Positions 4,557 through 42,280 of a stretch of 64,000 bases of DNA are shown here, piece by piece. The stretch comes from a candidate division FCPU426 bacterium (lineage in GTDB: Bacteria > Oederibacteriota > Muellerivitia > Muellerivitales > Muellerivitaceae). Position numbers and translations under genes: made by a program. Under the pieces are notes generated by a model. The model was not told the DNA's origin. It worked only from the letters and a program-made list of their open reading frames with translations, and ran no database searches. The stretch lies in the NCBI GenBank assembly GCA_963849245.1, contig CAWKIY010000029.1:3733-67732 (forward strand), written 5' to 3'. How positions within the stretch are numbered: the stretch's first letter is position 1; the number at the start of each line of letters is the position of its first letter.

Positions 4557-4690
4557 GTTCCGTCCTCAAATAGGGGGTCGAAGAAAAGCGAGGGCATTGT
4601 ATCAGTCAGGAAGGGCTCCCGCAACTTTAGCCGGAGGCTTAAAGCGTTTTCAAGCAAGACAGGCCCAACATTGAAACAAGAATCCCAAGT

Positions 4691-4815
4691 AAAACTGCTT
4701 TCACCGCCAAGACGCCAAGTCCGCCAAGAAAGGCAATAAACAATCAGTTTTAAAGAATTTTAACTTTTTTTGGTGTTCTTGGCGGACTTGGCGTCTTGGC
4801 GGTGGAAGCAGTTTT
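4691..4815. repeat. Long near-perfect inverted repeat (40-bp arms, 1 mismatch, 45-nt AT-rich spacer). Each arm carries three reiterated GCCAAG motifs at 8-9 bp spacing.
   Basis: Left arm 4691-4730 aaaactgctttcaccGCCAAGacGCCAAGtccGCCAAGaa. Right arm 4776-4815 is its reverse complement except one base. Lies between the 3795..4556 gene start and the LacI gene stop. Confidence 0.85.
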
Positions 4816-4843
4816 GATTAAAAGCCCAACCGGCCACAACTAC

Positions 4844-5869
4844 TTATTTTTTCACCCCAGAGGATTCACGGACGACCAGCAGGGTCGGCATAAACACCTG
4901 GCGGGTTTTCCAGGTATCTAAATGATGAATTTTCTCGATTAAAATTTTCGTCGCTTCCACGCTCAGTCCCCGGAAATCCTGTTTCATCGTGGTCAAAGAA
5001 TAGGGCGGCTTGGAAGCCTCGGCGATATCGTCAAAGCCCACCAGCGCGATATCTTTCCCCACTTTCAATCCCGCTTTTTCAATCTCATCCCAGGTGGCCA
5101 AGGCCATCAAGTCGTCCGAGGAGAAAATCGCCGTAGGCCGGTCGGATAAAGCCAATAATTTTTTAGCCGCTGCCGTTCCCGAAACCCGGGTAAAGGAACC
5201 TTCCACAATATAGTTTTCCGGAATATTTAGGCCGTGCTTTTTCATCGCGTTTTTATACCCTGTGAGGCGATCCATGGCGTCCGAGGACATTTTCACCGGA
5301 CCCGCGATAAAAGCGATTTTCTTGTGGCCCAGGCCGACCAGATAATCCACCATTTGGGCCGACGCGTTTAGGTTGTCGCAATCGACGAAATCAATGTCCG
5401 GGCTTTCCGTGCGGTGCCCGATCAACACGATCGGAACCTTATTTTCAGTGATATGTAAAATATCTTTTTCAGACAAAATGGGCGAAACCAGCAGGATGCC
5501 GTCCATCGCGTTATGAAACATCTTTTTATAAATTTCCACGGGATCGAAAACGCCGGCGATCGTATTTACCAGAAGACCGAAATCGTTTTCTTGAACTGTC
5601 TCGTTAATCCCGTTTAAAAGTTCCACATACCAATGGGCTTTAAAATCGCACTTAGTTTCAAACCAGGAAAAAAAGACTTGGATGAGATTCGTTTGGTTCA
5701 CCACTAACCCCCGGGCAATGGGATTAGGTTTGAATTCCAGTTCTTCGATGATTTTCAAGACCTTTTGCCGGGTCTCCTCTAAAACATTTGGATTTTTGTT
5801 GAGAACCCGGGAAACAGTGGAGATCGAAACCCCGGCTTTGTTCGCGACATCATAAATTGTGACGGACAT
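4844..5869 (-). CDS. LacI/GalR family transcriptional regulator
   Basis: N-terminal HTH MSVTIYDVANKAGVSISTVSRVLNKNPNV, followed by a periplasmic-binding-protein-like sugar-binding fold (..FDDIAEASKPPYSLTTMKQDFRGLS..). Confidence 0.9.
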   Translation of the reverse strand: MSVTIYDVANKAGVSISTVSRVLNKNPNVLEETRQKVLKIIEELEFKPNPIARGLVVNQTNLIQVFFSWFETKCDFKAHWYVELLNGINETVQENDFGLLVNTIAGVFDPVEIYKKMFHNAMDGILLVSPILSEKDILHITENKVPIVLIGHRTESPDIDFVDCDNLNASAQMVDYLVGLGHKKIAFIAGPVKMSSDAMDRLTGYKNAMKKHGLNIPENYIVEGSFTRVSGTAAAKKLLALSDRPTAIFSSDDLMALATWDEIEKAGLKVGKDIALVGFDDIAEASKPPYSLTTMKQDFRGLSVEATKILIEKIHHLDTWKTRQVFMPTLLVVRESSGVKK

Positions 5870-5894
5870 GGCGGCTCCTTAAGATCGCTTTCAA

Positions 5895-5904
5895 AGCGCT
5901 TTCA
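5895..5904. promoter_or_regulatory. Candidate LacI-type operator (10-bp perfect palindrome AAAGCGCTTT) in the divergent LacI/suhB intergenic region
   Basis: tcAAAGCGCTTTca lies 26 nt upstream of the LacI start. The central AAnCGnTT core fits LacI/GalR operator architecture. Not experimentally verifiable here. Confidence 0.3.
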
Positions 5905-6130
5905 TCACACTTCACACGAATCCCCGTTCGTTAAAACTAGCGGGGAGAAATAATTCTTCTAAACGAAACTTTCACCGTTGTTGAATGGTTCAACGAACGG
6001 AATTCATTGCGGCTGAAATGGATTTTAGCATGAATTAAATAAAAAAGCCGGGCTTTCCCCCGAACTTTTTCAGCTTTCCGAAGGTCTAAACGCTGTTACA
6101 ATCCACGGAATTTAATTCAAAGGATGAAGG

Positions 6131-6937
6131 ATGAACCTCTTTTTAAAAGCCGCGGTCCAGGCCGCTCAAGCCGCCGGAAAAATCCACAAAAAACACTACG
6201 GCAAAACTCTGAATATCCAATTCAAATCCAAAAACAACCAGAATCTCGTAACCCAAGTGGACAAACTTTCGGAAAAAGCGATCCTCTCCCTCCTCCAAAA
6301 GCGTTTTCCCGCCCATAACTTTTTAGGAGAAGAAAGCGGCGGGCAGGAAAATAACTCCCGCTACACCTGGGTGGTCGACCCTTTGGATGGCACCACCAAT
6401 TTCGCCCACGCCTATCCTTTCTTCTGCGTTTCCATCGCCCTTCTGAAAGATAAGAAGCCCGTGGCCGCGGTGGTTTACGACTCCCTCCGAAACGAGTGCT
6501 TCACCGCGGAAAAAGGCCGCGGCGCCTTCTTGAATGGCCGCCGGCTGAATGTTTCCAAAATCGGGACCTTAGAGGAAAGCCTTCTTTGCACCGGCTTCGC
6601 CTATGCGGTCCGCGAAACCCGCTACAACCTGGATAACTTTGAGAAATTCGTTTTAAAAGCTCAGGGGGTGCGCCGGGACGGCTCCGCCGCTTTGAATCTC
6701 GCCTATGTGGCAGCGGGCCGTTTTGACGGTTTCTGGGAAAGGGGCATCCAAGCCTGGGATATGGCCGCGGGTGTTTTGCTGGTCTGGGAAGCCGGAGGCC
6801 AAGTTACCGATCTCACAGGCAAGCCCTATGACTTGTTCAAGGAAAACGCCCTGGCCAGCAACGGCAAAATCCACAACCACTTATTCAAAATCCTGAAAAA
6901 CGGCCAAGACGAAAAAACCTGGGCGAAAAACCATTAA
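6131..6937 (+). CDS. suhB: Inositol monophosphatase family protein (SuhB/IMPase-like)
   Basis: WVVDPLDGTTNFAHAYPFFCVSIAL contains the IMPase DPLDGT motif. WDMAAGVLLVWEAGG matches the C-terminal motif. 268 aa. Confidence 0.85.
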   Translation: MNLFLKAAVQAAQAAGKIHKKHYGKTLNIQFKSKNNQNLVTQVDKLSEKAILSLLQKRFPAHNFLGEESGGQENNSRYTWVVDPLDGTTNFAHAYPFFCVSIALLKDKKPVAAVVYDSLRNECFTAEKGRGAFLNGRRLNVSKIGTLEESLLCTGFAYAVRETRYNLDNFEKFVLKAQGVRRDGSAALNLAYVAAGRFDGFWERGIQAWDMAAGVLLVWEAGGQVTDLTGKPYDLFKENALASNGKIHNHLFKILKNGQDEKTWAKNH

Positions 6938-6945
6938 ACCTTTTT

Positions 6946-7094
6946 GAACCACGAAGTGACACCAAGAGCACAAAGTAGAGAAATCACGAAGTAAAAAGCA
7001 TTTCCTAAAACATCGTTATAAAACCATGATTTTCCTGTTCCTGATTTACTTTGTGGCCTCCCTACTTTGTGCTCTTGGTGTCACTTCGTGGTTC
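6946..7094. repeat. Perfect 33-bp inverted repeat flanking an 83-nt AT-rich spacer. Each arm carries three reiterated CACnAAG heptamers.
   Basis: Left arm 6946-6978 gaacCACGAAGtgaCACCAAGagCACAAAGtag. Right arm 7062-7094 is the exact reverse complement. Starts 9 nt after the suhB stop and ends 66 nt before the downstream ATG (7160). Confidence 0.85.
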
Positions 7095-7159
7095 CTCCTT
7101 GGAACCTTTTCTTTTTTCCTGTGTCTTACCAGGTGAAGGTCAATCACCGGAGGTGTCAC

Positions 7160-8836
7160 ATGGAAGCGAGATTCAGAAAAGTTGGGTTTCTGTCGGTTTT
7201 ATTGTTTCTGGGAGTTCACGCCGGTTGGGGGGAAGTCACTGTTTCAACCCAACCCCGGCAGGTTACGGTATTTCCCGACAGCGCCCGGGTCGTTCGGGAA
7301 GGCTCGTTAAAACTGGAGGCGGGGCCGGAAAAAGTTCTCTTCCCCGACCTACCCGCCTCCGTCATTGAATCCTCCATCCGCCTCACGGTAGATGGCCCCC
7401 CGGGCACCAAACTCTTCGGCGTCGAACTGCGCAAGGAATATACCCCGGAAGTCGCAGAGGAGCGGACCCGGGTGTTGAAGAACCAAATCCAATCCCTCGA
7501 AGACGAACGCACCGCCTTTACCGACCGGGTCGACGCGCGTAAAACCGAAATGGACATTTTGAAGGGACTCGCCAAAGAAAGCGCCTCCACCGCCGCCTGC
7601 CAAGGCGCCACCCATGCCGGAACCATTGTGGACTTCACCCGCTCCGCCGGCGCGGTGGGCGCCCGAATCGCCAAACTCATGCTGGCTTCCCGCAAAGACG
7701 AGCGGGGCATCCGGAATTTGGATTTGAAACTCGCCGCCCTGAGAAAACAATTGTCCGAAGGCGGATCCCCCGACCGGGAAAAGAAAACCGCCTCCGCGGA
7801 CTTGGAATTAGCCCAACCCGGTATTGCCCGGTTTACGCTCACCTATCAGGTCTCGCAAGCCGGCTGGACTCCTCTTTACGATCTGCGGCTGAATACGACG
7901 GCTGAAAAACCCCAAATGGACCTGGTCTTCAACGCCGGGGTTCGCCAGAAGACTGGCGAGGATTGGAACGGAGTCGCCTTAACCCTTTCCACCTCCCGGC
8001 CCACCGAAGGCACCCAGGTACCCGACCCCACCGATTGGTGGCTGGACTTCTTCAATCACGAAGTATTCCGGGCCAAGAAACTAATGGGCATGGCCGCCTA
8101 TGCTCCCGCACCCGCCAGCTCGAATGCCGCCCTCTATGAGGAAAAAAATGACGATAGCCAGGACGCGAGCCTCGAGGCAGCCCAAGTCGAGACGGCCCAA
8201 ACAATTCAAGCCCCCTACGCTATGTCCTTTTCCATCCCCACCCACAAGGATATTCCCTCCGACGGGTCCGACCACCGGGTAGAGATCGCCGAGAACTCCC
8301 ACCCCGTCGCCCTGACCCTGGTGGCGGTCCCCCGCCTGTCCCAAGCCGCCTACCTAGAAGCCAAGATCACCTACGGCGGCGAGCAATCCCTGCTCCCCGG
8401 CCAAGCCCAGCTTTTCCGGGACGGTGATTTCGTGGGAACGACTTATCTGGAAGCCAAAGCCCCCGGCGAGGCCTTTGACCTAGGGTTTGGCCAGGATGAC
8501 CAAATCCGCGTGGAAAGAAAAATGGTGAACGAAACGACCGGCCAAGCGGGATTCCTTTTCACCAAGGGCGAACGCAAATACGACTGGGTGACAACCCTGG
8601 TGAACTATCACTCGGGCGTCCGCACGGTGGAAGTGAGGGAACAGCTTCCCCGGTCTCATCAAAAACAGATCACCGTGGAAAAAGACAACATTTCCCCGAA
8701 ACCCCAACCCGAAAACCCCGACAAGCCCGGCCTAGTTTGTTGGAAACTGGAGCTAACTCCAAAGGAAAAAACCAAACTGACCTTCGCCTATCATGTGAAC
8801 TTTCCGGAAGATATGCAAATTTCAGGACTGGAATAA
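7160..8836 (+). CDS. Secreted DUF4139/DUF4140 family protein (mucoidy-inhibitor MuiA-like)
   Basis: Likely true start MEARFRKVGFLSVLLFLGVHAGWG (signal peptide) with AGGTG RBS at 7151. The track start at 7067 is a TTG inside the inverted repeat. 558 aa, with coiled-coil and a beta-rich C-terminus typical of the DUF4139 family. Family call from memory, moderate. Confidence 0.6.
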   Translation: MEARFRKVGFLSVLLFLGVHAGWGEVTVSTQPRQVTVFPDSARVVREGSLKLEAGPEKVLFPDLPASVIESSIRLTVDGPPGTKLFGVELRKEYTPEVAEERTRVLKNQIQSLEDERTAFTDRVDARKTEMDILKGLAKESASTAACQGATHAGTIVDFTRSAGAVGARIAKLMLASRKDERGIRNLDLKLAALRKQLSEGGSPDREKKTASADLELAQPGIARFTLTYQVSQAGWTPLYDLRLNTTAEKPQMDLVFNAGVRQKTGEDWNGVALTLSTSRPTEGTQVPDPTDWWLDFFNHEVFRAKKLMGMAAYAPAPASSNAALYEEKNDDSQDASLEAAQVETAQTIQAPYAMSFSIPTHKDIPSDGSDHRVEIAENSHPVALTLVAVPRLSQAAYLEAKITYGGEQSLLPGQAQLFRDGDFVGTTYLEAKAPGEAFDLGFGQDDQIRVERKMVNETTGQAGFLFTKGERKYDWVTTLVNYHSGVRTVEVREQLPRSHQKQITVEKDNISPKPQPENPDKPGLVCWKLELTPKEKTKLTFAYHVNFPEDMQISGLE

Positions 8837-8851: not shown

Positions 8852-8890
8852 GCAAAAAGCTAACCGGGAAAATTCCCGGTTAGCTTTTAT
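8852..8890 (+). terminator. Rho-independent terminator
   Basis: gctaaccggg aaaatt cccggttagc (10-bp perfect stem) followed by ttttattgttt, 16 nt after the stop at 8836. Confidence 0.8.
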
Positions 8891-26316: not shown

Positions 26317-29300
26317 TTAGCGGAGGACTAAGACCTTAAGGATTTTACTGGATTTCACCGGGCCTGTGACCTGGACTTTTAAATAGTAAATACCGTTGGC
26401 TACTGTATTTCCCCACGCGTCATTTAGATTCCAATCGAGAACCGCGTTATTTCCGAAATTAGTGTCCGTATGATCCTGAACCTTTCGGAAGGCGGTCGTA
26501 TAAACAGTCCATTCAACCGTGGAACCGGCGGGAATCTGTAACTGGATAGACACCGGCCCCGCATGGACCGGATTAGGATAGGGCAGCCCAATTACGACAG
26601 TCGAGCCTGGATTAGACGAAGCCGTCGCGGTCGAAGTCGGTGTGGAGGTATAGGTGAGGATGGGCGTTAAGGTCAAGGTAAGCGTTGAGGTAGGGCTGCT
26701 CGAAGGAGTGGAAGTCGCTGTAGCCGTAAGCGTATTGGTCAAAGTAGCGGTGAACGTATTCGTCGGGGTATTCGTTGAAGAATAAGTCGGGGTGGCCGTA
26801 TTGGTCGCGATAGGGGTCGGCGTCATCGTGGAAGTACTGGAGGCCGTCGGCGTTAACGTATCCGAAGCCGTGGCGGTCAGGGTTTGAGTCGACGTGGCCG
26901 TAGCACTGGGAGTATTGGTTGCCGTATTGGCCGCCGTAGGGGTATAGGTCCCCGGCAGGAAGGTATTTGTCGGTGTAATACTCAAAGTCATCGTCGCCGT
27001 CCCCGTTAAATTCAAAGTTGGGGTGAAGGTCACCGTTGGCGTAGCCGTGGGCGATCCCGCTGTTGGGGAAATCGTAATCGTCGGGGTGGCCGTCGGCGCG
27101 GCTGGCGTGGATGTATCCGTAGCCGTGTACGCCACCGTCAGGGTAGCGCTCGGAGTCATTGTCGCTGTCCCCGTTAAATCAAAGGTTGGAGTCAAGGTAA
27201 CGGTGGACGTGGAAGTCGGTGATCCCGCCGTTGGGGAGACCGTAATCGTCGGGGTGGCCGTAGGCGCGGCTGGCGTAGACGTATTCGTAGCCGTGTACAC
27301 CGCCGTCAGGGTAGCGCTCGGGGTTATTGTCGCCGTCCCGGTTAAATTCACAGTCAAAGTAAAGGTTGGAGTAGCCGTAGGCGCAACAAACGTAGATGTA
27401 TTCGTAGCCGTGGAAGTCACCGTTGGCGTGGCCGTAGGCGATCCTGCCGTTGGGGAAATCGTAATGGTCGGTGTTGCCGTCGGTAGAGACGGAGTGAATG
27501 TATCCGTAACGGTGTAAGTCGCCGTCGATGTGTTTACCAATGTCAGGGTAGCGCTTGGGGTCATCGTCGCTGTCCCGGTTAAATTCACAGTGGGAGTAGG
27601 GGTTACCGTTGGCGTGGCGGTAGGCGATCCTACTGTTGGAGAGACTGTAATCGTCGGGGTGGCCGTAGGCGCGGCTGGCGTGGATGTATTCGTAGCCGTG
27701 TACACCACTGTCAGGGTAGCGCTTGGGGTCATCGTCGCCGTTCCGGTTAAATTCACAGTCGGAGTGAAGCTGAAGGTTGATGTAACCGTAGGCGATCCCG
27801 CCGTTGGGGAAATTGTAATCGTCGGGGTGGCCGTAGGCACAACCGTGGTAAATGTACCCGTAACGGTGGATGTCACCGTCGACGTAGATACCGCCGTTAA
27901 GGTGAAAGTCGGAGTAGCCGTTGGGCTTCCCGGGGTCGGAGTGACCGTACTAGTTAAAGTCGGCGTGGCGGTCGGAGGCGCGTTCTCAAAATAAATATCA
28001 TCATAATCAATCGTCTCGTTCGATCCGCCTGTAGCCGGGCCGGCCACTAAAAAGCCCACATCCAAAACGGCCGCCCAATTGAACGTGCCGATACTCGAAT
28101 CCCAATTCGTCGAGTTGATCGGCAATACCACGTTCACCCAGGTATTCAGCATTGTGACTGAATATAAAACCGGCGAACCCGTTCCCCCGGTGTAGTAGCT
28201 CGTATCCGCCACTGAGTAACTACTGTTACTTGTCGCGCTTTGCATAAATACTTTGAACGTGACTGGAGAACTCGTATTGATCCAGAAGCTTAAGGACGCT
28301 GGGGCTGAAGGCGCGATACTTACCGCGTCCCCATAGTTATTGATTTGGGCGTAACCGGACTCGAAAGCGTATGCCGCTGTACCATTAGACCCGGTCCATG
28401 TTACGGCCATCTGGATTCCCCAGCTGCCTGAATGGACTTGGGTATTTTCCAAATACCCTGTTACCGCAGAATTAACTTCCCCAAAAGTTTGATCCATACT
28501 AGAAGAGACGACTGCCCCATTCGTATCGCCGTAGGGATCTCCTCCCTCGGGATAACTCGGATATTCCCAGTTCTCAAACACCATGCCCGAAATCGAAGGA
28601 GTTGGTGTAGCCGCAAAAGTGGAAGTACTCGTAGGAGTCAGGCTGATCGTGGCTGTCGACGTCATCGTTGATGTGGAACTGGATGTCATCGTAAACGTGG
28701 ATGTACCTGTTGGAACCACGGTATTAGTCAGTGAAGGCGTAAGCGTCGCCGTAACCACCAACGTCGGGGTATAGGTTCCCGGCAGGAAGGTATTTGTCGG
28801 CGTGGCGCTGGGGGTTATTGTCGCCGTCCCGGTTAAATTCAAAGTCGAAGTAAAGGTAAAGGTTGGAGTAGCCGTAGGCGCGGCAAACGTAGATGTATTC
28901 GTAGCCGTGGAAGTCACTGTTGACGTGGCTGTAGGCGAGCCTACTGTTGGGGAAACCGTAATCGTCGGTGTTGCCGTCGGTAGAGACGGTGTAAATGTAT
29001 CGGTAACTGTGTACGTCGCCGTCGAAGTTTCCACTGCTGTCAGGGTAGCGCTCGGGGTTATTGTCGCCGTCCCGGTTAAATTCGCAGTCAAAGTAAAGGT
29101 TGAAGTGGCCGTAGGCGATCCTGCCGTTGGGGAAATCGTAATGGTCGGTGTTGCCGTCGGTAGAGACGGAGTGAATGTATCCGTAACGGTGTAAGTCGCC
29201 GTCGATGTGTTTACCAATGTCAGGGTAGCGCTTGGGGTCATCGTCGCTGTCCCGGTTAAATTCACAGTGGGAGTAGGGGTTACCGTTGGCGTGGCGGTAG

Positions 29301-31116
29301 GCGATCCTACTGTTGGAGAGACTGTAATCGTCGGTGTTGCCGTAGGCGCGGGCGGCGTGGATGTATTCGTAGCCGTGTACACCGCCGTCGGGGTATAGGT
29401 TCCCGGAAGGAAGGTGTTCGTTGAGGTAAAAGTAACCGTGAAAGTACCCGTATTAGTCGGCGTAAAACTGCTGGTTAGGGTGGGCGTAAAGGTCGGCGTC
29501 GTAGTACTGGTTAGGGTTGTGGTCGAAGTAGCCGTAGTGGTTCCAGTCGCCGTGTTGGTAGAAGTAAGCGTCTTGGTCGGGGTGGAGGTCACCGTGGGGG
29601 CGACGTAACAAAAATTTAAATTATCGAAAAGAACCGTGGAAGAATAAGGGAATGTAGTAACCGACGCGGGACTCATCATCTCAAAATCTAAACTACGAAC
29701 GCCGGTGCCGTCATAGGTAATGGAGCTTAAATCCGCTATAACATTTGTCCACTGTCCGGCTGGCAGGCTTTGGGTAATGGTCACTACATGACTGGTCGTA
29801 TCGTAAATAACCACGTAGGATAAATTGATCGTTTGGGAAGGATTGATGTCAAAACTCAATTGAGTCGGATTGGAACCCATAGACTGGACATTAACGGCGG
29901 AGCCTCCACCGGCAACCCCGTCATAAACCTCCAATTGGGCCAAACCGCTGGGACCCGTGAAAGTAATCGCGTCCTGAAGACTGCCAACCGAGCCTCCATA
30001 GGTTTGAAGGGTATTCGTGTTCAACGTAACCGTTTGTGTCACAGAAGAGCTGACGACGAAATAACCGGTCGAGGGATTTGTCGTCCAAGGCGCCTCGTCA
30101 AAATCATCAAAATCAAAACAATTAGTCAAAACCGGAGTGCTGCTAGCCGTAGGAGTCGCTGTTGTTGTAGGTGTGGGAGTGCTTGTTGGAAGAGGCGTGA
30201 GGGTGTAAGTTCCAGGGGCGAAAGTATTAGTCGGGGTAAAGGTCGCCGTATTCGTCGGCGTTAACGTGGGAGTAGGCGCCGCAAAGCAAAAATTAAAGTT
30301 GTCTAAAAGAACCGTCGAAGAATAGGGATAAGTGCTCACCGATCCTGGGCTGGTGATGCCGAAATAAACCTGCACAACATCTGTGCCGTTGTAAGTGATC
30401 GAACTCAAGTCTACAACCACATTAGTCCATACACCGGCCGGAAGGGTTTGGTTCACGGGAACCGTATGTAAGGATGTGTCATAAACACCCACATTCGATA
30501 AGGTAATCACTTGGGAAGGATTGATATAAAAACTAAGTTTGGTTGGATTCGAACCCAGGTACTGCACATTAACGGCACCGCCAAAAGAAGCCCCGTTACC
30601 CACTCCCAACAATGCCAGATTACCAGCACCCGTGAAAGTAATTGCGTCCTGAAGGCTTCCTAAGGAACCACCATAGGTTTGAAGGCTATTGGTGTCCAAT
30701 GTAACGGCTTGAGTCGTGGAAGTATTAATTGGCTGGCACAAATAAGATGGGAAGCCCCCGCCAATCCATGGACTCTCGTCAAAATCATCAAAATTAAAAC
30801 AATTGGCCAAAGCGACCGTATTGGTGAAGGTAGGCGTATAGCTTCCGTTCGAGGTATTCGTGGGAGAAGGGGTGAAAGTCGCAGTTGGAGTACCCGTATT
30901 GAAAGGCGTAAAAGTAATCGTGGAAGTATAAGTCACCGTACCCGTAGCCGTCGGGGTAGCGGTAAGTCCCGGGGTATTGGTGGACGTACTGGTTGAAGTG
31001 AGGGTAGGCGTATTGGTGGCAAAGACAGGCAAGGCCCAACCCATGAAAAAAACAACCACGAAGCAGGCAAAAATGCCGGCATTCCAAAACAAAAATTTAT
31101 TTCCAAACGCTCTCAT
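26317..31116 (-). CDS. Giant (1599 aa) Thr/Pro-rich repetitive cell-surface protein. It has two CBM-like ~175-aa domains (xNCFxFDDFDExPW...) and a type-IX-secretion-like C-terminal sorting domain.
   Basis: Signal peptide. Two copies of the ..NCF(N/D)FDDFDE(S/A)PW...LQTYGGS(L/V)[11 protein letters not shown].. domain. Dozens of ~60-aa [23 protein letters not shown] repeat units. C-terminal [15 protein letters not shown]...TAFRKVQD...GIYYLKVQV...KILKVLVLR. Confidence 0.85.
27428..27656. repeat. 229-bp perfect direct repeat, copy 1, inside the adhesin gene. It is part of a longer array of ~180-bp coding repeats.
   Basis: Identical base for base to 29105-29333 by manual line-by-line comparison. 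Confidence 0.9.
29105..29333. repeat. 229-bp perfect direct repeat, copy 2, inside the adhesin gene
   Basis: Identical to 27428-27656. Flanking repeat units are related but diverged. Confidence 0.9.
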
Positions 31117-41091: not shown

Positions 41092-41880
41092 CTAAGAAGA
41101 GGTCCATCTTCTTGGCGGCTGATCCCAGCGGGGATTATTAAAGTAGCGTTCCGTGCGAACCGAAAAAATCCGATGAAGATCAACTAATCCTATTTGGTTT
41201 TCTTTGGCGAGTTCCGCTAAACGATCGTTATATTGTTCCAAAACTTTTAGCCCGTCCGGCCAGCCCCACTTAGTAAATCCTCTGCCGTTGGTAAAATCGT
41301 AAAGATTAGCGATTAAAATCTGCTTTGACTTTTTTCTCGTTAACGCTTTCAAGATAATCTGAATCCGTTTCTTAAACTGATGGGAGTAAATCATTCCTTC
41401 GGAAGCGTTACAGCCAAAAGGATGAAGCGCGTCTGGCGGACCGGACGGATTGGTTTTCACTAAATCATTCAAGCCGACAAAAAGGGTAACGAAGTCGGCG
41501 CCGTCAGGAACTTCGGGTAGCTCACGGTCAATCACCACCAGCGTATTGGCGAATCCAATACCCAAAATCTTCTTATCTTTAAAACCCGCCCGATTCGCTA
41601 GAATTTCCGCGTAAGTCGGGTGGAATTTGTCCCCCGTAAAATGGGTGACGCTATCACCCAACGCGCAATAAACCTCCCGTTTATTTTTTTGTAGTTGGGC
41701 TAAAAAAGCTTCAGCCATCAAAAAATGGCCGCGGCTGTTGGGATGGACTTCCCCGTCAAAAGGAAGGAAATCAGCGGAAGAAAAAGGCTTCGGGCCGCAG
41801 CCCGCTAAAAGCAGGATCAGAAAAAGAGTTCTTTTCAGTAGAATCCCCTGACTAAATTTTGGGCCTAACCCGGGCGGCAT
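41092..41880 (-). CDS. SGNH/GDSL-family hydrolase lipoprotein
   Basis: ..VYCALGDSVTHFTGD (GDS block), ..LFVGLNDL.. (block III). Lipobox LLLAGCG. The track start is likely too far upstream and overlaps the previous gene. Confidence 0.7.
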   Translation of the reverse strand: MPPGLGPKFSQGILLKRTLFLILLLAGCGPKPFSSADFLPFDGEVHPNSRGHFLMAEAFLAQLQKNKREVYCALGDSVTHFTGDKFHPTYAEILANRAGFKDKKILGIGFANTLVVIDRELPEVPDGADFVTLFVGLNDLVKTNPSGPPDALHPFGCNASEGMIYSHQFKKRIQIILKALTRKKSKQILIANLYDFTNGRGFTKWGWPDGLKVLEQYNDRLAELAKENQIGLVDLHRIFSVRTERYFNNPRWDQPPRRWTSS

Positions 41881-42280
41881 AAACCCCTAAACAAGCGTCC
41901 GCGACGACTTTGAATCCCGCTTTTTCCAGTTTGGCTTCCGCTTCCGGATGGGTAATGCCCGTTTGAAGCCAAACGACTTTCGGCCGTTTTTCTTCAGGGA
42001 GGGCGATAATTTCATCCGCTAGCTCCGGAATGGCGTCGCTGCGGCGGAATACGTCCAGAATATCCACCTTCACCGGCAAATCGGCCAAGCTAGCCAAAGC
42101 CTTTTGACCCATAGAAGATTGAATCTTCGGATTCACGGGATAAAGCTGAATGTCCCTTTCGTGGAGCATGGCCGGTATCTGAAAAGCGGGGCGGTCCATA
42201 TGGGCCTCATCCTGCATACCGTAAACGGCGACGGTCTTGGCGTCTTTGGCGGCTTGAAGCGCTTCTTGTTCAGAAAGCAT
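41852..42280 (-). CDS. CoA-binding domain protein (YccU-like)
   Basis: ..AKTVAVYGMQDEAHMDRPAFQIP...YPVNPK...VWLQTGI.. Rossmann-like CoA-binding fold. Confidence 0.7.
   Translation of the reverse strand: MLSEQEALQAAKDAKTVAVYGMQDEAHMDRPAFQIPAMLHERDIQLYPVNPKIQSSMGQKALASLADLPVKVDILDVFRRSDAIPELADEIIALPEEKRPKVVWLQTGITHPEAEAKLEKAGFKVVADACLGVYAARVRPKI

Follow-up and report, generated by a model that had tools for sequence, protein, structure and literature searches.

Intervening sequences (IVSs) occur sporadically in the 23S rRNA genes of Coxiella, Leptospira and Salmonella as stem-loops in which terminal inverted repeats of ~28 bp enclose a small open reading frame (ORF) or nothing; they are horizontally transferred and regarded as selfish, and their stem is cut by RNase III (PMC4990558). 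Here we analyse two hairpin elements, E2 and its sibling E1, in a 64,000-nt stretch of DNA (the window) from a candidate division FCPU426 bacterium (GenBank assembly GCA_963849245.1, contig CAWKIY010000029.1, positions 3,733 to 67,732). By analogy, the ORF-bearing and ORF-less IVSs appear to be the closest described counterparts of these elements, with miniature inverted-repeat transposable elements (MITEs) next. The ORF types reported in or near IVSs are small 'four helix bundle' proteins and GxxExxY proteins. E1 and E2 belong to an apparently undescribed and very large family of heptamer arrays, which crosses phyla and is also present in phage genomes. We hold with moderate confidence that they are gene-less, MITE- or IVS-like copies of a cross-phylum family of hairpin cassettes, the full form of which encloses a gene for a GxxExxY nuclease-like protein between its arms.

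IVSs sit in helix 9, 25 or 45 of 23S rRNA and their ORF encodes S23p, whereas E2 sits after a protein-coding gene and the full version of its family encodes a GxxExxY protein (PF13366) between arms that are arrays of three heptamers with a conserved head. The 64-kb window contains no rRNA, so that the location typical of IVSs is not shared. Like MITEs and REPINs (hairpins formed by doublets of repetitive extragenic palindromic, or REP, sequences), members of the E2 family are short non-coding intergenic hairpin repeats that are tied to an ORF-bearing version and polymorphic for presence or absence. Unlike them, the family shows no target-site duplications, no transposase or REP-associated tyrosine transposase (RAYT) was found between the arms, near-identical copies were not seen within the 64 kb, and the loops are unrelated to one another. 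MITEs and REPINs have unique terminal repeats, whereas the arms of the E2 family are motif arrays and solo arms are common. REP sequences are imperfect palindromes of 20–40 nt with a 5' GTAG, occurring as doublets; the E2 arms are not self-palindromic and have no GTAG.

Cyanobacterial short tandemly repeated repetitive (STRR) heptamers and small dispersed repeats are tandem, heptamer-scale intergenic units. The TAACTGA repeats of Beggiatoaceae are intergenic tandem heptamers that span lineages and have no known function (PMC4679880). The E2 family differs from STRR and TAACTGA repeats in being fixed at three units with spacers of 1–4 nt, in having a head, in its position at stop codons, in its inverted pairs and in bracketing a specific gene family. 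Integron attC sites resemble E2 in being imperfect inverted repeats at the 3' end of a promoterless gene cassette, with AAC...GTT outer ends and a variable sequence on a fixed architecture, but no cassette array context was seen here and the arms of the E2 family flank the ORF on both sides. The attC identity was rejected on the boxes themselves, since the R''/R' consensus (RYYYAAC / GTTRRRY) does not match the ends of E2 (TTTGAAC / GTTCCTC). None of the neighbouring genes with a Pfam assignment, to which this check was confined, encodes an integrase. Iteron arrays recognised by ribbon-helix-helix proteins (omega heptads, ParG boxes, MetJ metboxes) consist of 4–8-bp motifs spaced at 7–11 bp in direct and inverted orientation and conserved at the motifs only. 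Each such array belongs to a single locus, at a promoter or a centromere, and its reader is the known product of an adjacent gene, whereas for the E2 family the GxxExxY protein is only a candidate reader.

E2 lies between suhB, a member of the inositol monophosphatase family (Pfam Inositol_P, SuhB-like; 6131–6937), and a gene with Pfam matches to DUF4140/DUF4139, in keeping with the original prediction. The features of the locus are, in window coordinates:

4691–4815, no strand assigned: E1, of the CGCCAAG subtype, with core arms at 4703–4729 and 4777–4803 (ACCGCCAAGACGCCAAGTCCGCCAAGA)
6935–6937, plus strand: TAA stop codon of suhB; E2 begins 9 nt past it
6946–6978, plus strand: left arm of E2, with the head GAACCAC and the units CACGAAG (6950–6956), CACCAAG (6960–6966) and CACAAAG (6969–6975)
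6979–7061, no strand assigned: AT-rich spacer of E2, with an inner fourth unit pair inside
7062–7094, minus strand: right arm of E2, the exact reverse complement of the left arm
7090–7117, plus strand: small canonical intrinsic terminator found by a terminator scan, GGTTCC-TCCTT-GGAACC followed by TTTTCTTTTTT
7149–7162, plus strand: start of the DUF4140/DUF4139 gene, with a GGAGG ribosome-binding site at 7149–7153 and ATG at 7160

E2 is an inverted repeat of 149 bp (6946–7094). The perfect 33-bp inverted arms of three CACnAAG units that had been predicted are present, the arms being complementary at 33 of 33 positions with 83 nt between them and the units starting at 6950, 6960 and 6969, spacings of 10 and 9 nt. 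Pairing continues imperfectly to 50 nt (6946–6995 with 7045–7094, 90%). The AT-rich spacer contains the inner fourth pair, CACGAAGTAAA at 6985–6995 and TTTACTTTGTG at 7045–7055, which includes one G·U on the plus strand. The array in the arm reads GAACCACGAAG-TGA-CACCAAG-AG-CACAAAG and has the head, the three units and the scarcity of T that typify the family. The predicted RNA fold of E2 has an energy of −81.1 kcal/mol, compared with −30.9 ± 3.9 kcal/mol for shuffled sequences (z = −13.0). Four inverted repeats of at least 20 nt occur in the window, E1 and E2 being the two strongest, and patterns of two units are found within the 64 kb in E1 and E2 only, against an expectation of 0–0.04 from shuffles. 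The E2 arms are perfect at every N and spacer position, unlike those of usual family members, which would point to a recent inverted duplication or to gene conversion between the arms.

E1 (RNA fold −77.6 kcal/mol, z = −11.4) lies 28 nt downstream of the stop codon of a minus-strand gene of the LacI family. On its other side comes the conserved promoter block of a gene for a 253-aa protein, E1 being upstream of that block, and the element is flanked by AAAA...TTTT. The two elements are 2.3 kb apart and have the motif alone in common. As first proposed, they share one design, and an arm model (R1, below) matches the arms of both. The promoter-like block upstream of the 253-aa gene (4594–4627; GGCATTGTATCAG...CTCCYGCAACTT, or TTGCRG...TGATACAAT on the minus strand) is kept in all eight related loci, the intergenic DNA around it not being kept.

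Logan contig L001, from another run or sample, is identical to window positions 4775–6975, and both its ends fall inside the inverted repeats of E1 and E2. A k-mer assembler stops in this way at true inverted repeats, and the two elements are therefore not artefacts of the present assembly; an assembly artefact was rejected on the strength of this independent contig and of degenerate orthologues in relatives. The alternative start of the downstream gene in the right arm of E2 (TTG 7067), which the original prediction took from its ORF track, is an artefact of the ORF caller. The true start is likely to be ATG 7160 behind GGAGG, and E2 is therefore wholly intergenic. A very hydrophobic ORF of 36 codons (MIFLFLIYFVASLLCALGVTSWFLLGTFSFFLCLTR, 7026–7142), which lacks a Shine-Dalgarno sequence, extends from the E2 loop across the right arm and the terminator. 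The ORF is probably a by-product of that arm, whose pyrimidine-rich sequence codes for Leu, Phe, Val and Cys.

A degenerate pattern that keeps the head and motif positions alone, AACCACNAAG-N1–4-CRCNAAG-N1–4-CRCNAAG, matches at least 120 stretches in metagenome contigs and at least 120 in viral contigs, many of the latter with three to nine copies. Soil, peat, sediment and microbial mats are among the metagenome sources. The further clustered arrays that were sought are thus numerous. The module comprises a head, AACC(A/G)C, and three C(A/G)CNAAG heptamers at a spacing of 8–10 nt, with spacers of 1–4 nt. Among the matches listed, to which all counts of arrays given here and below refer, exactly three units are present in 300 of the 328 arrays with at least three, and the base composition of the arrays is 48% A, 28% C, 22% G and 2% T. 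An inverted partner lies within 130 nt in 42 of 88 metagenome matches; the resulting paired elements are 53–151 nt long, typically 70–80 nt, and their loops share neither length nor sequence. About half of the metagenome arrays are solo, with a few in head-in orientation, as are some 70% of those in viral contigs. Looser three-unit arrays are six-fold enriched in 1.3 Mb of unrelated genome loci (20, against 3.2 ± 1.6 in shuffles), this background being made up of the loci of distant SuhB homologues at 43–55% identity, again among the matches listed. Several of these arrays closely resemble E1 (L036, with CGCCAAG units) or E2 (L044, GGAACCAC...GTGGTTCC).

Searches of Rfam with the window region, at permissive thresholds, and with typical family members gave no family at or above the gathering threshold, the sub-threshold matches being merely to generic microRNA hairpins. 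A consensus hairpin had no BLAST match among the cultured phages of INPHARED or the plasmids of PLSDB, a result to which the low-complexity filter may have contributed. In the literature searched, the element is nowhere described; the multi-unit strings searched for appear in no paper, and single-unit strings only in unrelated ones.

Arrays of other units were also seen. In the viral contigs L274 (about 990–800, 5364–5170 and 8224–8030) and L230 (623–800), intergenic repeats of ~170 nt are composites in which a CACGAAG array and G+C-rich hairpins are joined by a second array, with units of CACAGAG or CACAGAT; several unit types thus co-occur in a single repeat. Loci of Acidobacteriota and Omnitrophota (L025, L036, L049, L028, L020 and L033) contain many hairpins with tandem units of 7–8 nt of unrelated sequence (GCAGTTG, CAGTGGT, ATTGCCG, GGATGAA, ATCGTGA and GTCACAAA), which suggests that the CRCNAAG family is one part of a wider class of hairpins built from tandem units.

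The evidence that ties the arrays to a gene came from a screen for ORFs located between a left and a right arm. This identified two proteins of 130–145 aa with matches to PF13366 PDDEXK_3 and, at E = 9e-36 and 2e-43, to TIGR04256 'GxxExxY protein'. In L113, the left arm stops one base ahead of the ATG and the right arm begins at the stop codon. Bracketing by arms was found for 10 of 10 GxxExxY genes examined (L113, L135, L125, L170, L175, L332, L333, L334, L335 and L346), whereas an array is present in just a few per cent of intergenic regions of the ordinary kind. Among these ten, three genes other than the two from the screen, in the loci collected, are bracketed alike, two of them by array unit types outside the search pattern, and all five of those reached by protein homology alone are bracketed: viral contig L332, Chloroflexi metagenome-assembled genome (MAG) L333, L334, Verrucomicrobiota MAG L335 and L346. 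The left array of these cassettes ends 0–10 nt before the ATG. In L333 and L135, the order is left arm, spacer, right arm, ORF, right arm, the right-arm copies of L333 being identical over 27 nt; this looks like the arrangement expected if a circular unit of ORF plus arm had integrated at an arm by a Campbell-type event. In the AT-rich viral contig L332 (1300–2013), the GxxExxY gene lies between tandem hairpin copies with arms of ATCAGCG / CGCAGAT units, and the association of gene and array therefore reaches another unit sequence.

The connection extends to the window. An arm of E1 is identical at 29 of 31 positions to an arm beside the GxxExxY gene of the Chloroflexi MAG. Model R1, built only from 14 arms flanking GxxExxY genes and run on the 64-kb window, ranks the E1 arms first and second (E = 1.9e-7 and 5.4e-7) and the E2 arms third and fifth (6945–6975, E = 0.0028; 7065–7093 on the minus strand, E = 0.0065). 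The sole other match below E = 0.01, at 42235–42255 (AAGCCGCCAAAGACGCCAAGA), was rejected as a coding look-alike and a false positive; it lies close to the 5' end of ORF 41852–42280, where it encodes AAKDAK. The GxxExxY protein, of ~130 aa, has an invariant D...ExK. Its AlphaFold model (pLDDT, the predicted local distance difference test score, of 93.7) contains a minimal PD-(D/E)XK core, the nearest solved folds being those of lambda exonuclease and Cas4 at a template modelling (TM) score of ~0.5; a sequence search returned no solved relative. The PDDEXK_3 family is listed as of unknown function, with 'multiple transfers' between divisions (PMC3424549). Neither E1 nor E2 has an ORF of the GxxExxY type inside.

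The same sites were compared in related genomes, represented by loci of SuhB homologues at 74–77% amino-acid identity; the best out-group matches, in Omnitrophota and others, are at ~52%. The gene order is conserved in these relatives, from the 253-aa gene through LacI and SuhB to HDAC, PilZ, Fer4, DUF6588 and SfsA. None of the related loci has a long perfect inverted repeat, and at the sites after suhB and after the LacI gene the element is present, degenerate, of another unit type or absent. After suhB, L005 has AACCACAGAGT starting 3 nt past the stop codon, with CACAGAG/CACGGAG units, and L003 has decayed CACAAAG/CACGAAG arrays; loci in which the next gene abuts have no element. After the LacI gene, CGCGAAG units are found in L091, ACAAAGG/ACGAAGG in L087 and CGCCGAT with the remnant TTTTCACCGCCAAGAAA in L003, three related loci have no element, and the arm found in L002 at this position, that of E1, is almost the same as that of E2 (TTTACTTTGTGCCCTTAGCGTCCTTCGTGGTTC). 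Units inside one element tend to change jointly. These varied states imply that the elements are dispensable and turn over rapidly, and the presence, absence or decay at both sites is not the picture of a conserved plain terminator. The LacI-suhB pair stays in place where the elements are missing; E1 and E2 are therefore not the ends of a composite transposon carrying that pair, and this candidate was rejected. An rve-family (integrase/transposase) gene was noted beside sfsA in L087 (14515–15564), absent from the window and the other relatives.

Two modules in inverted orientation form a hairpin such as E2, and in other bacteria the same inverted modules directly border the gene for the ~130-aa GxxExxY protein. 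In the account that we propose, E2 would stand to the cassette as a MITE to a transposon, or as an ORF-less to an ORF-bearing 23S rRNA IVS. The heptamers would be recognised by a factor acting in trans, for which the GxxExxY nuclease is the most plausible candidate, and this factor may spread or exchange the cassette through cutting and recombination at the arms. At its present site, E2 would be a passive passenger and its local effect that of a stem-loop in the 3' untranslated region (UTR) of suhB, where the stem may be an ideal substrate for RNase III or a barrier to 3'-exonucleases and its base may compete with the terminator stem.

Several observations weigh against interpreting E1 and E2 as gene-less cassettes. 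Target-site duplications are absent from 36 elements and from the flanks of E1 and E2. On single contigs (L125, L161), copies differ from one another in their loops and even in the spacers between units, the likeness of E1 and E2 is confined to the motif, and the exact 26-nt E2 arm has no second copy in the metagenome collection; copies so heterogeneous give no sign of a master element that was simply copied and pasted. The GxxExxY gene is absent from the window and from 10 related loci, and only one was found in viral contigs despite the abundance of arrays there. Identical GxxExxY proteins on several contigs (P0167, P0154) are always in the same context, so that they give no direct evidence of recent movement. 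The five loci reached from the protein are close relatives of the array-locus proteins, and the 10 of 10 may hold for a subfamily only. We know of no GxxExxY protein with an established activity. Finally, the solo arrays of phage contigs are strand-biased and often fill gaps between genes, which an RNA-level role fits at least as well.

A stronger form of the cassette interpretation, which we put forward tentatively and regard as unlikely, is that the arrays are the recognition or recombination sites of GxxExxY PD-(D/E)XK nucleases. The cassettes would then be a new minimal class of mobile or homing element, two arms of 27–30 nt and a nuclease of ~130 aa, with abundant gene-less derivatives, targeting of stop-codon edges and a spread across phyla and phages. 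Under this view, E1 and E2 would represent sites of the system that are empty or have decayed.

The main rival, possible though in our view somewhat doubtful, holds that the array is an RNA module of benefit to host or phage, an intercistronic or 3'-UTR signal on mRNA that the GxxExxY genes merely use, and that E2 is a functional hairpin of the suhB 3' UTR. A solo array could be an unstructured landing pad offering Shine-Dalgarno-like AAGG/AAGGA for re-initiation, and a paired one a processing or stability stem. Arrays sit on or just after stop codons, a position that we count in favour of the cassette interpretation. In the metagenome matches, a same-strand ORF ends within 30 nt of the head in 30 of 88 arrays; TTG, TTT or ATT usually precedes the array, which places a TGA or TAA across the start of the head, and in 16 of the 88 there is such an overlap with the stop codon. 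A divergent-promoter context is rare (2 of 23 arrays). E1 and E2 fit this family position, just after a stop codon at 28 and 9 nt, respectively. The main support for an RNA-level role is the strand bias in viral contigs, where solo arrays have a same-strand stop codon upstream in 43 of 104 cases against 13 of 104 in the mirror configuration, and where the array fills the entire stop-to-start gap in 22 of 102 cases, ending 2–25 nt before the ATG of ordinary capsid, terminase and tail genes. The fixed length of three units and the closeness of the left array to the ATG in GxxExxY cassettes point the same way.

Comparison of the two arms in 36 hairpin members bears on this rival from the other side. 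The partner arm, which the search pattern left unconstrained, is mismatched with the pattern-found arm at 4.5% of motif positions (CAC, AAG) but at 43% of N and 47% of spacer positions (Fisher p = 2e-44), and it is thus the heptamer that is conserved rather than base pairing as such. The antisense-oriented arm accordingly retains the motif, and N and spacer positions are not kept complementary. This contrast alone is no proof that both arms are recognised, as one constrained arm and a pairing partner can give the same pattern. Folding energy and G·U content have no sense-strand bias (6 members better in sense, 13 in antisense), and the strand test therefore leaves the choice between RNA and DNA undecided. 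Against an RNA module stand also the dispensability of the elements at orthologous sites and the locking of both E2 arrays in a perfect stem, which leaves no single-stranded pad.

That E2 is a plain, possibly bidirectional, intrinsic terminator, grown by motif slippage and palindrome-templated correction, without a sequence-specific role and with a likeness to the family that is convergent, we consider improbable. It does follow directly on a stop codon with a very stable stem, E1 is flanked by AAAA...TTTT, and tandem-unit hairpins of many unit types exist in other phyla. However, no U-tract comes right after E2, which is followed by CTCCTTGG, nor is there a T-tract after the element in 20 family members. 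The terminator scan picks just the hairpin at 7090–7106 with its T-tract, that is, the separate terminator at 7090–7117, and E2 is thus an extra structure between the stop codon of suhB and the suhB terminator. Conservation is ~10 times higher at motif positions than elsewhere in the element, different phyla have the same head and the same length of three units, and arrays that stand alone, free of any hairpin, are as common as hairpins. Ordinary terminators of the window, such as that at 8855–8888, have no periodic substructure.

The 5' stem of the terminator shares GGTTC with the last 5 nt of the right arm of E2, and the two stems are therefore mutually exclusive there. With a stem of 33–50 bp placed in the suhB 3' UTR directly before the terminator, E2 should alter 3'-end formation or create a substrate for RNase III; relatives do without it, and any such effect is therefore not essential. 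The DUF4140/DUF4139 gene (7160–8836) has its own perfect bidirectional terminator, at 8855–8888. This gene stands between suhB and the HDAC-family gene in the present genome only and is missing there from all relatives examined, which implies an insertion or deletion adjoining E2. Elsewhere in the window, three blocks of tandem repeats of 168–180 bp (79–85% matches) at 26986–29390 are presumably repeated domains of a large protein.

A classical MITE or REPIN, that is, a non-autonomous transposon moved by an insertion sequence transposase or a RAYT, is very improbable. The original prediction of a REP/MITE-like family was right in that E2 belongs to a structured intergenic family with many copies across phyla, for which the analogy is fair, and the terminal inverted repeats, small size, intergenic location, presence/absence polymorphism and frequent TG...CA at extended termini are in its favour. 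The comparison fails on target-site duplications and on GTAG palindromes of the REP type, neither of which is found; within the 64 kb, near-identical copies were not seen either, E1 and E2 being the only two members there and differing from each other. A search for kb-scale elements with these ends returned none, and the nuclease-like GxxExxY protein is the sole ORF type between arms.

A palindrome of the LacI/cre type (TGAAAGCGCTTTGA, 5881–5905, minus strand) lies ~12 nt upstream of the start of the LacI-family gene, in the divergent region between LacI and suhB, and is probably that gene's own operator; a LacI-family operator (a 14–18-bp palindrome of the TGNAANCGNTTNCA type) is absent from E1 and E2. 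The other earlier suggestion, that E1 and E2 are arrayed operators by which the adjacent LacI-family protein or a response regulator controls suhB and/or the DUF4139 gene, is scarcely credible: the inverted arrays, 65 nt ahead of the start of the DUF4139 gene, do have heptamers with a period of about one helical turn, and two similar elements flank the LacI-suhB pair, but across many phyla and in phages such arrays come after genes of unrelated kinds, relatives keep LacI-suhB yet lose or change the elements and are without the DUF4139 gene, the units of E1 and E2 differ, and the LacI gene has the palindrome at 5881–5905 instead.

For the suhB locus itself, the consequence is modest, the element being dispensable in relatives. 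More generally, the arrays would be expected to place long stems of the RNase III type in 3' UTRs, and they break de Bruijn assemblies, as in the Logan contig that ends in both elements, and create false alternative start codons. If the cassette interpretation is correct, uncultured bacteria of soil, sediment and freshwater, and their phages, contain a class of non-coding DNA that is very common yet has had no name, and it is tied to a large protein family, PF13366/TIGR04256, that is listed as of unknown function. The link to GxxExxY genes makes the function of that family testable, as the binding or cutting of CACNAAG/CGCCAAG arrays, and it may help to explain why hairpin insertions, the intervening sequences of rRNA for example, exist both with and without an ORF.

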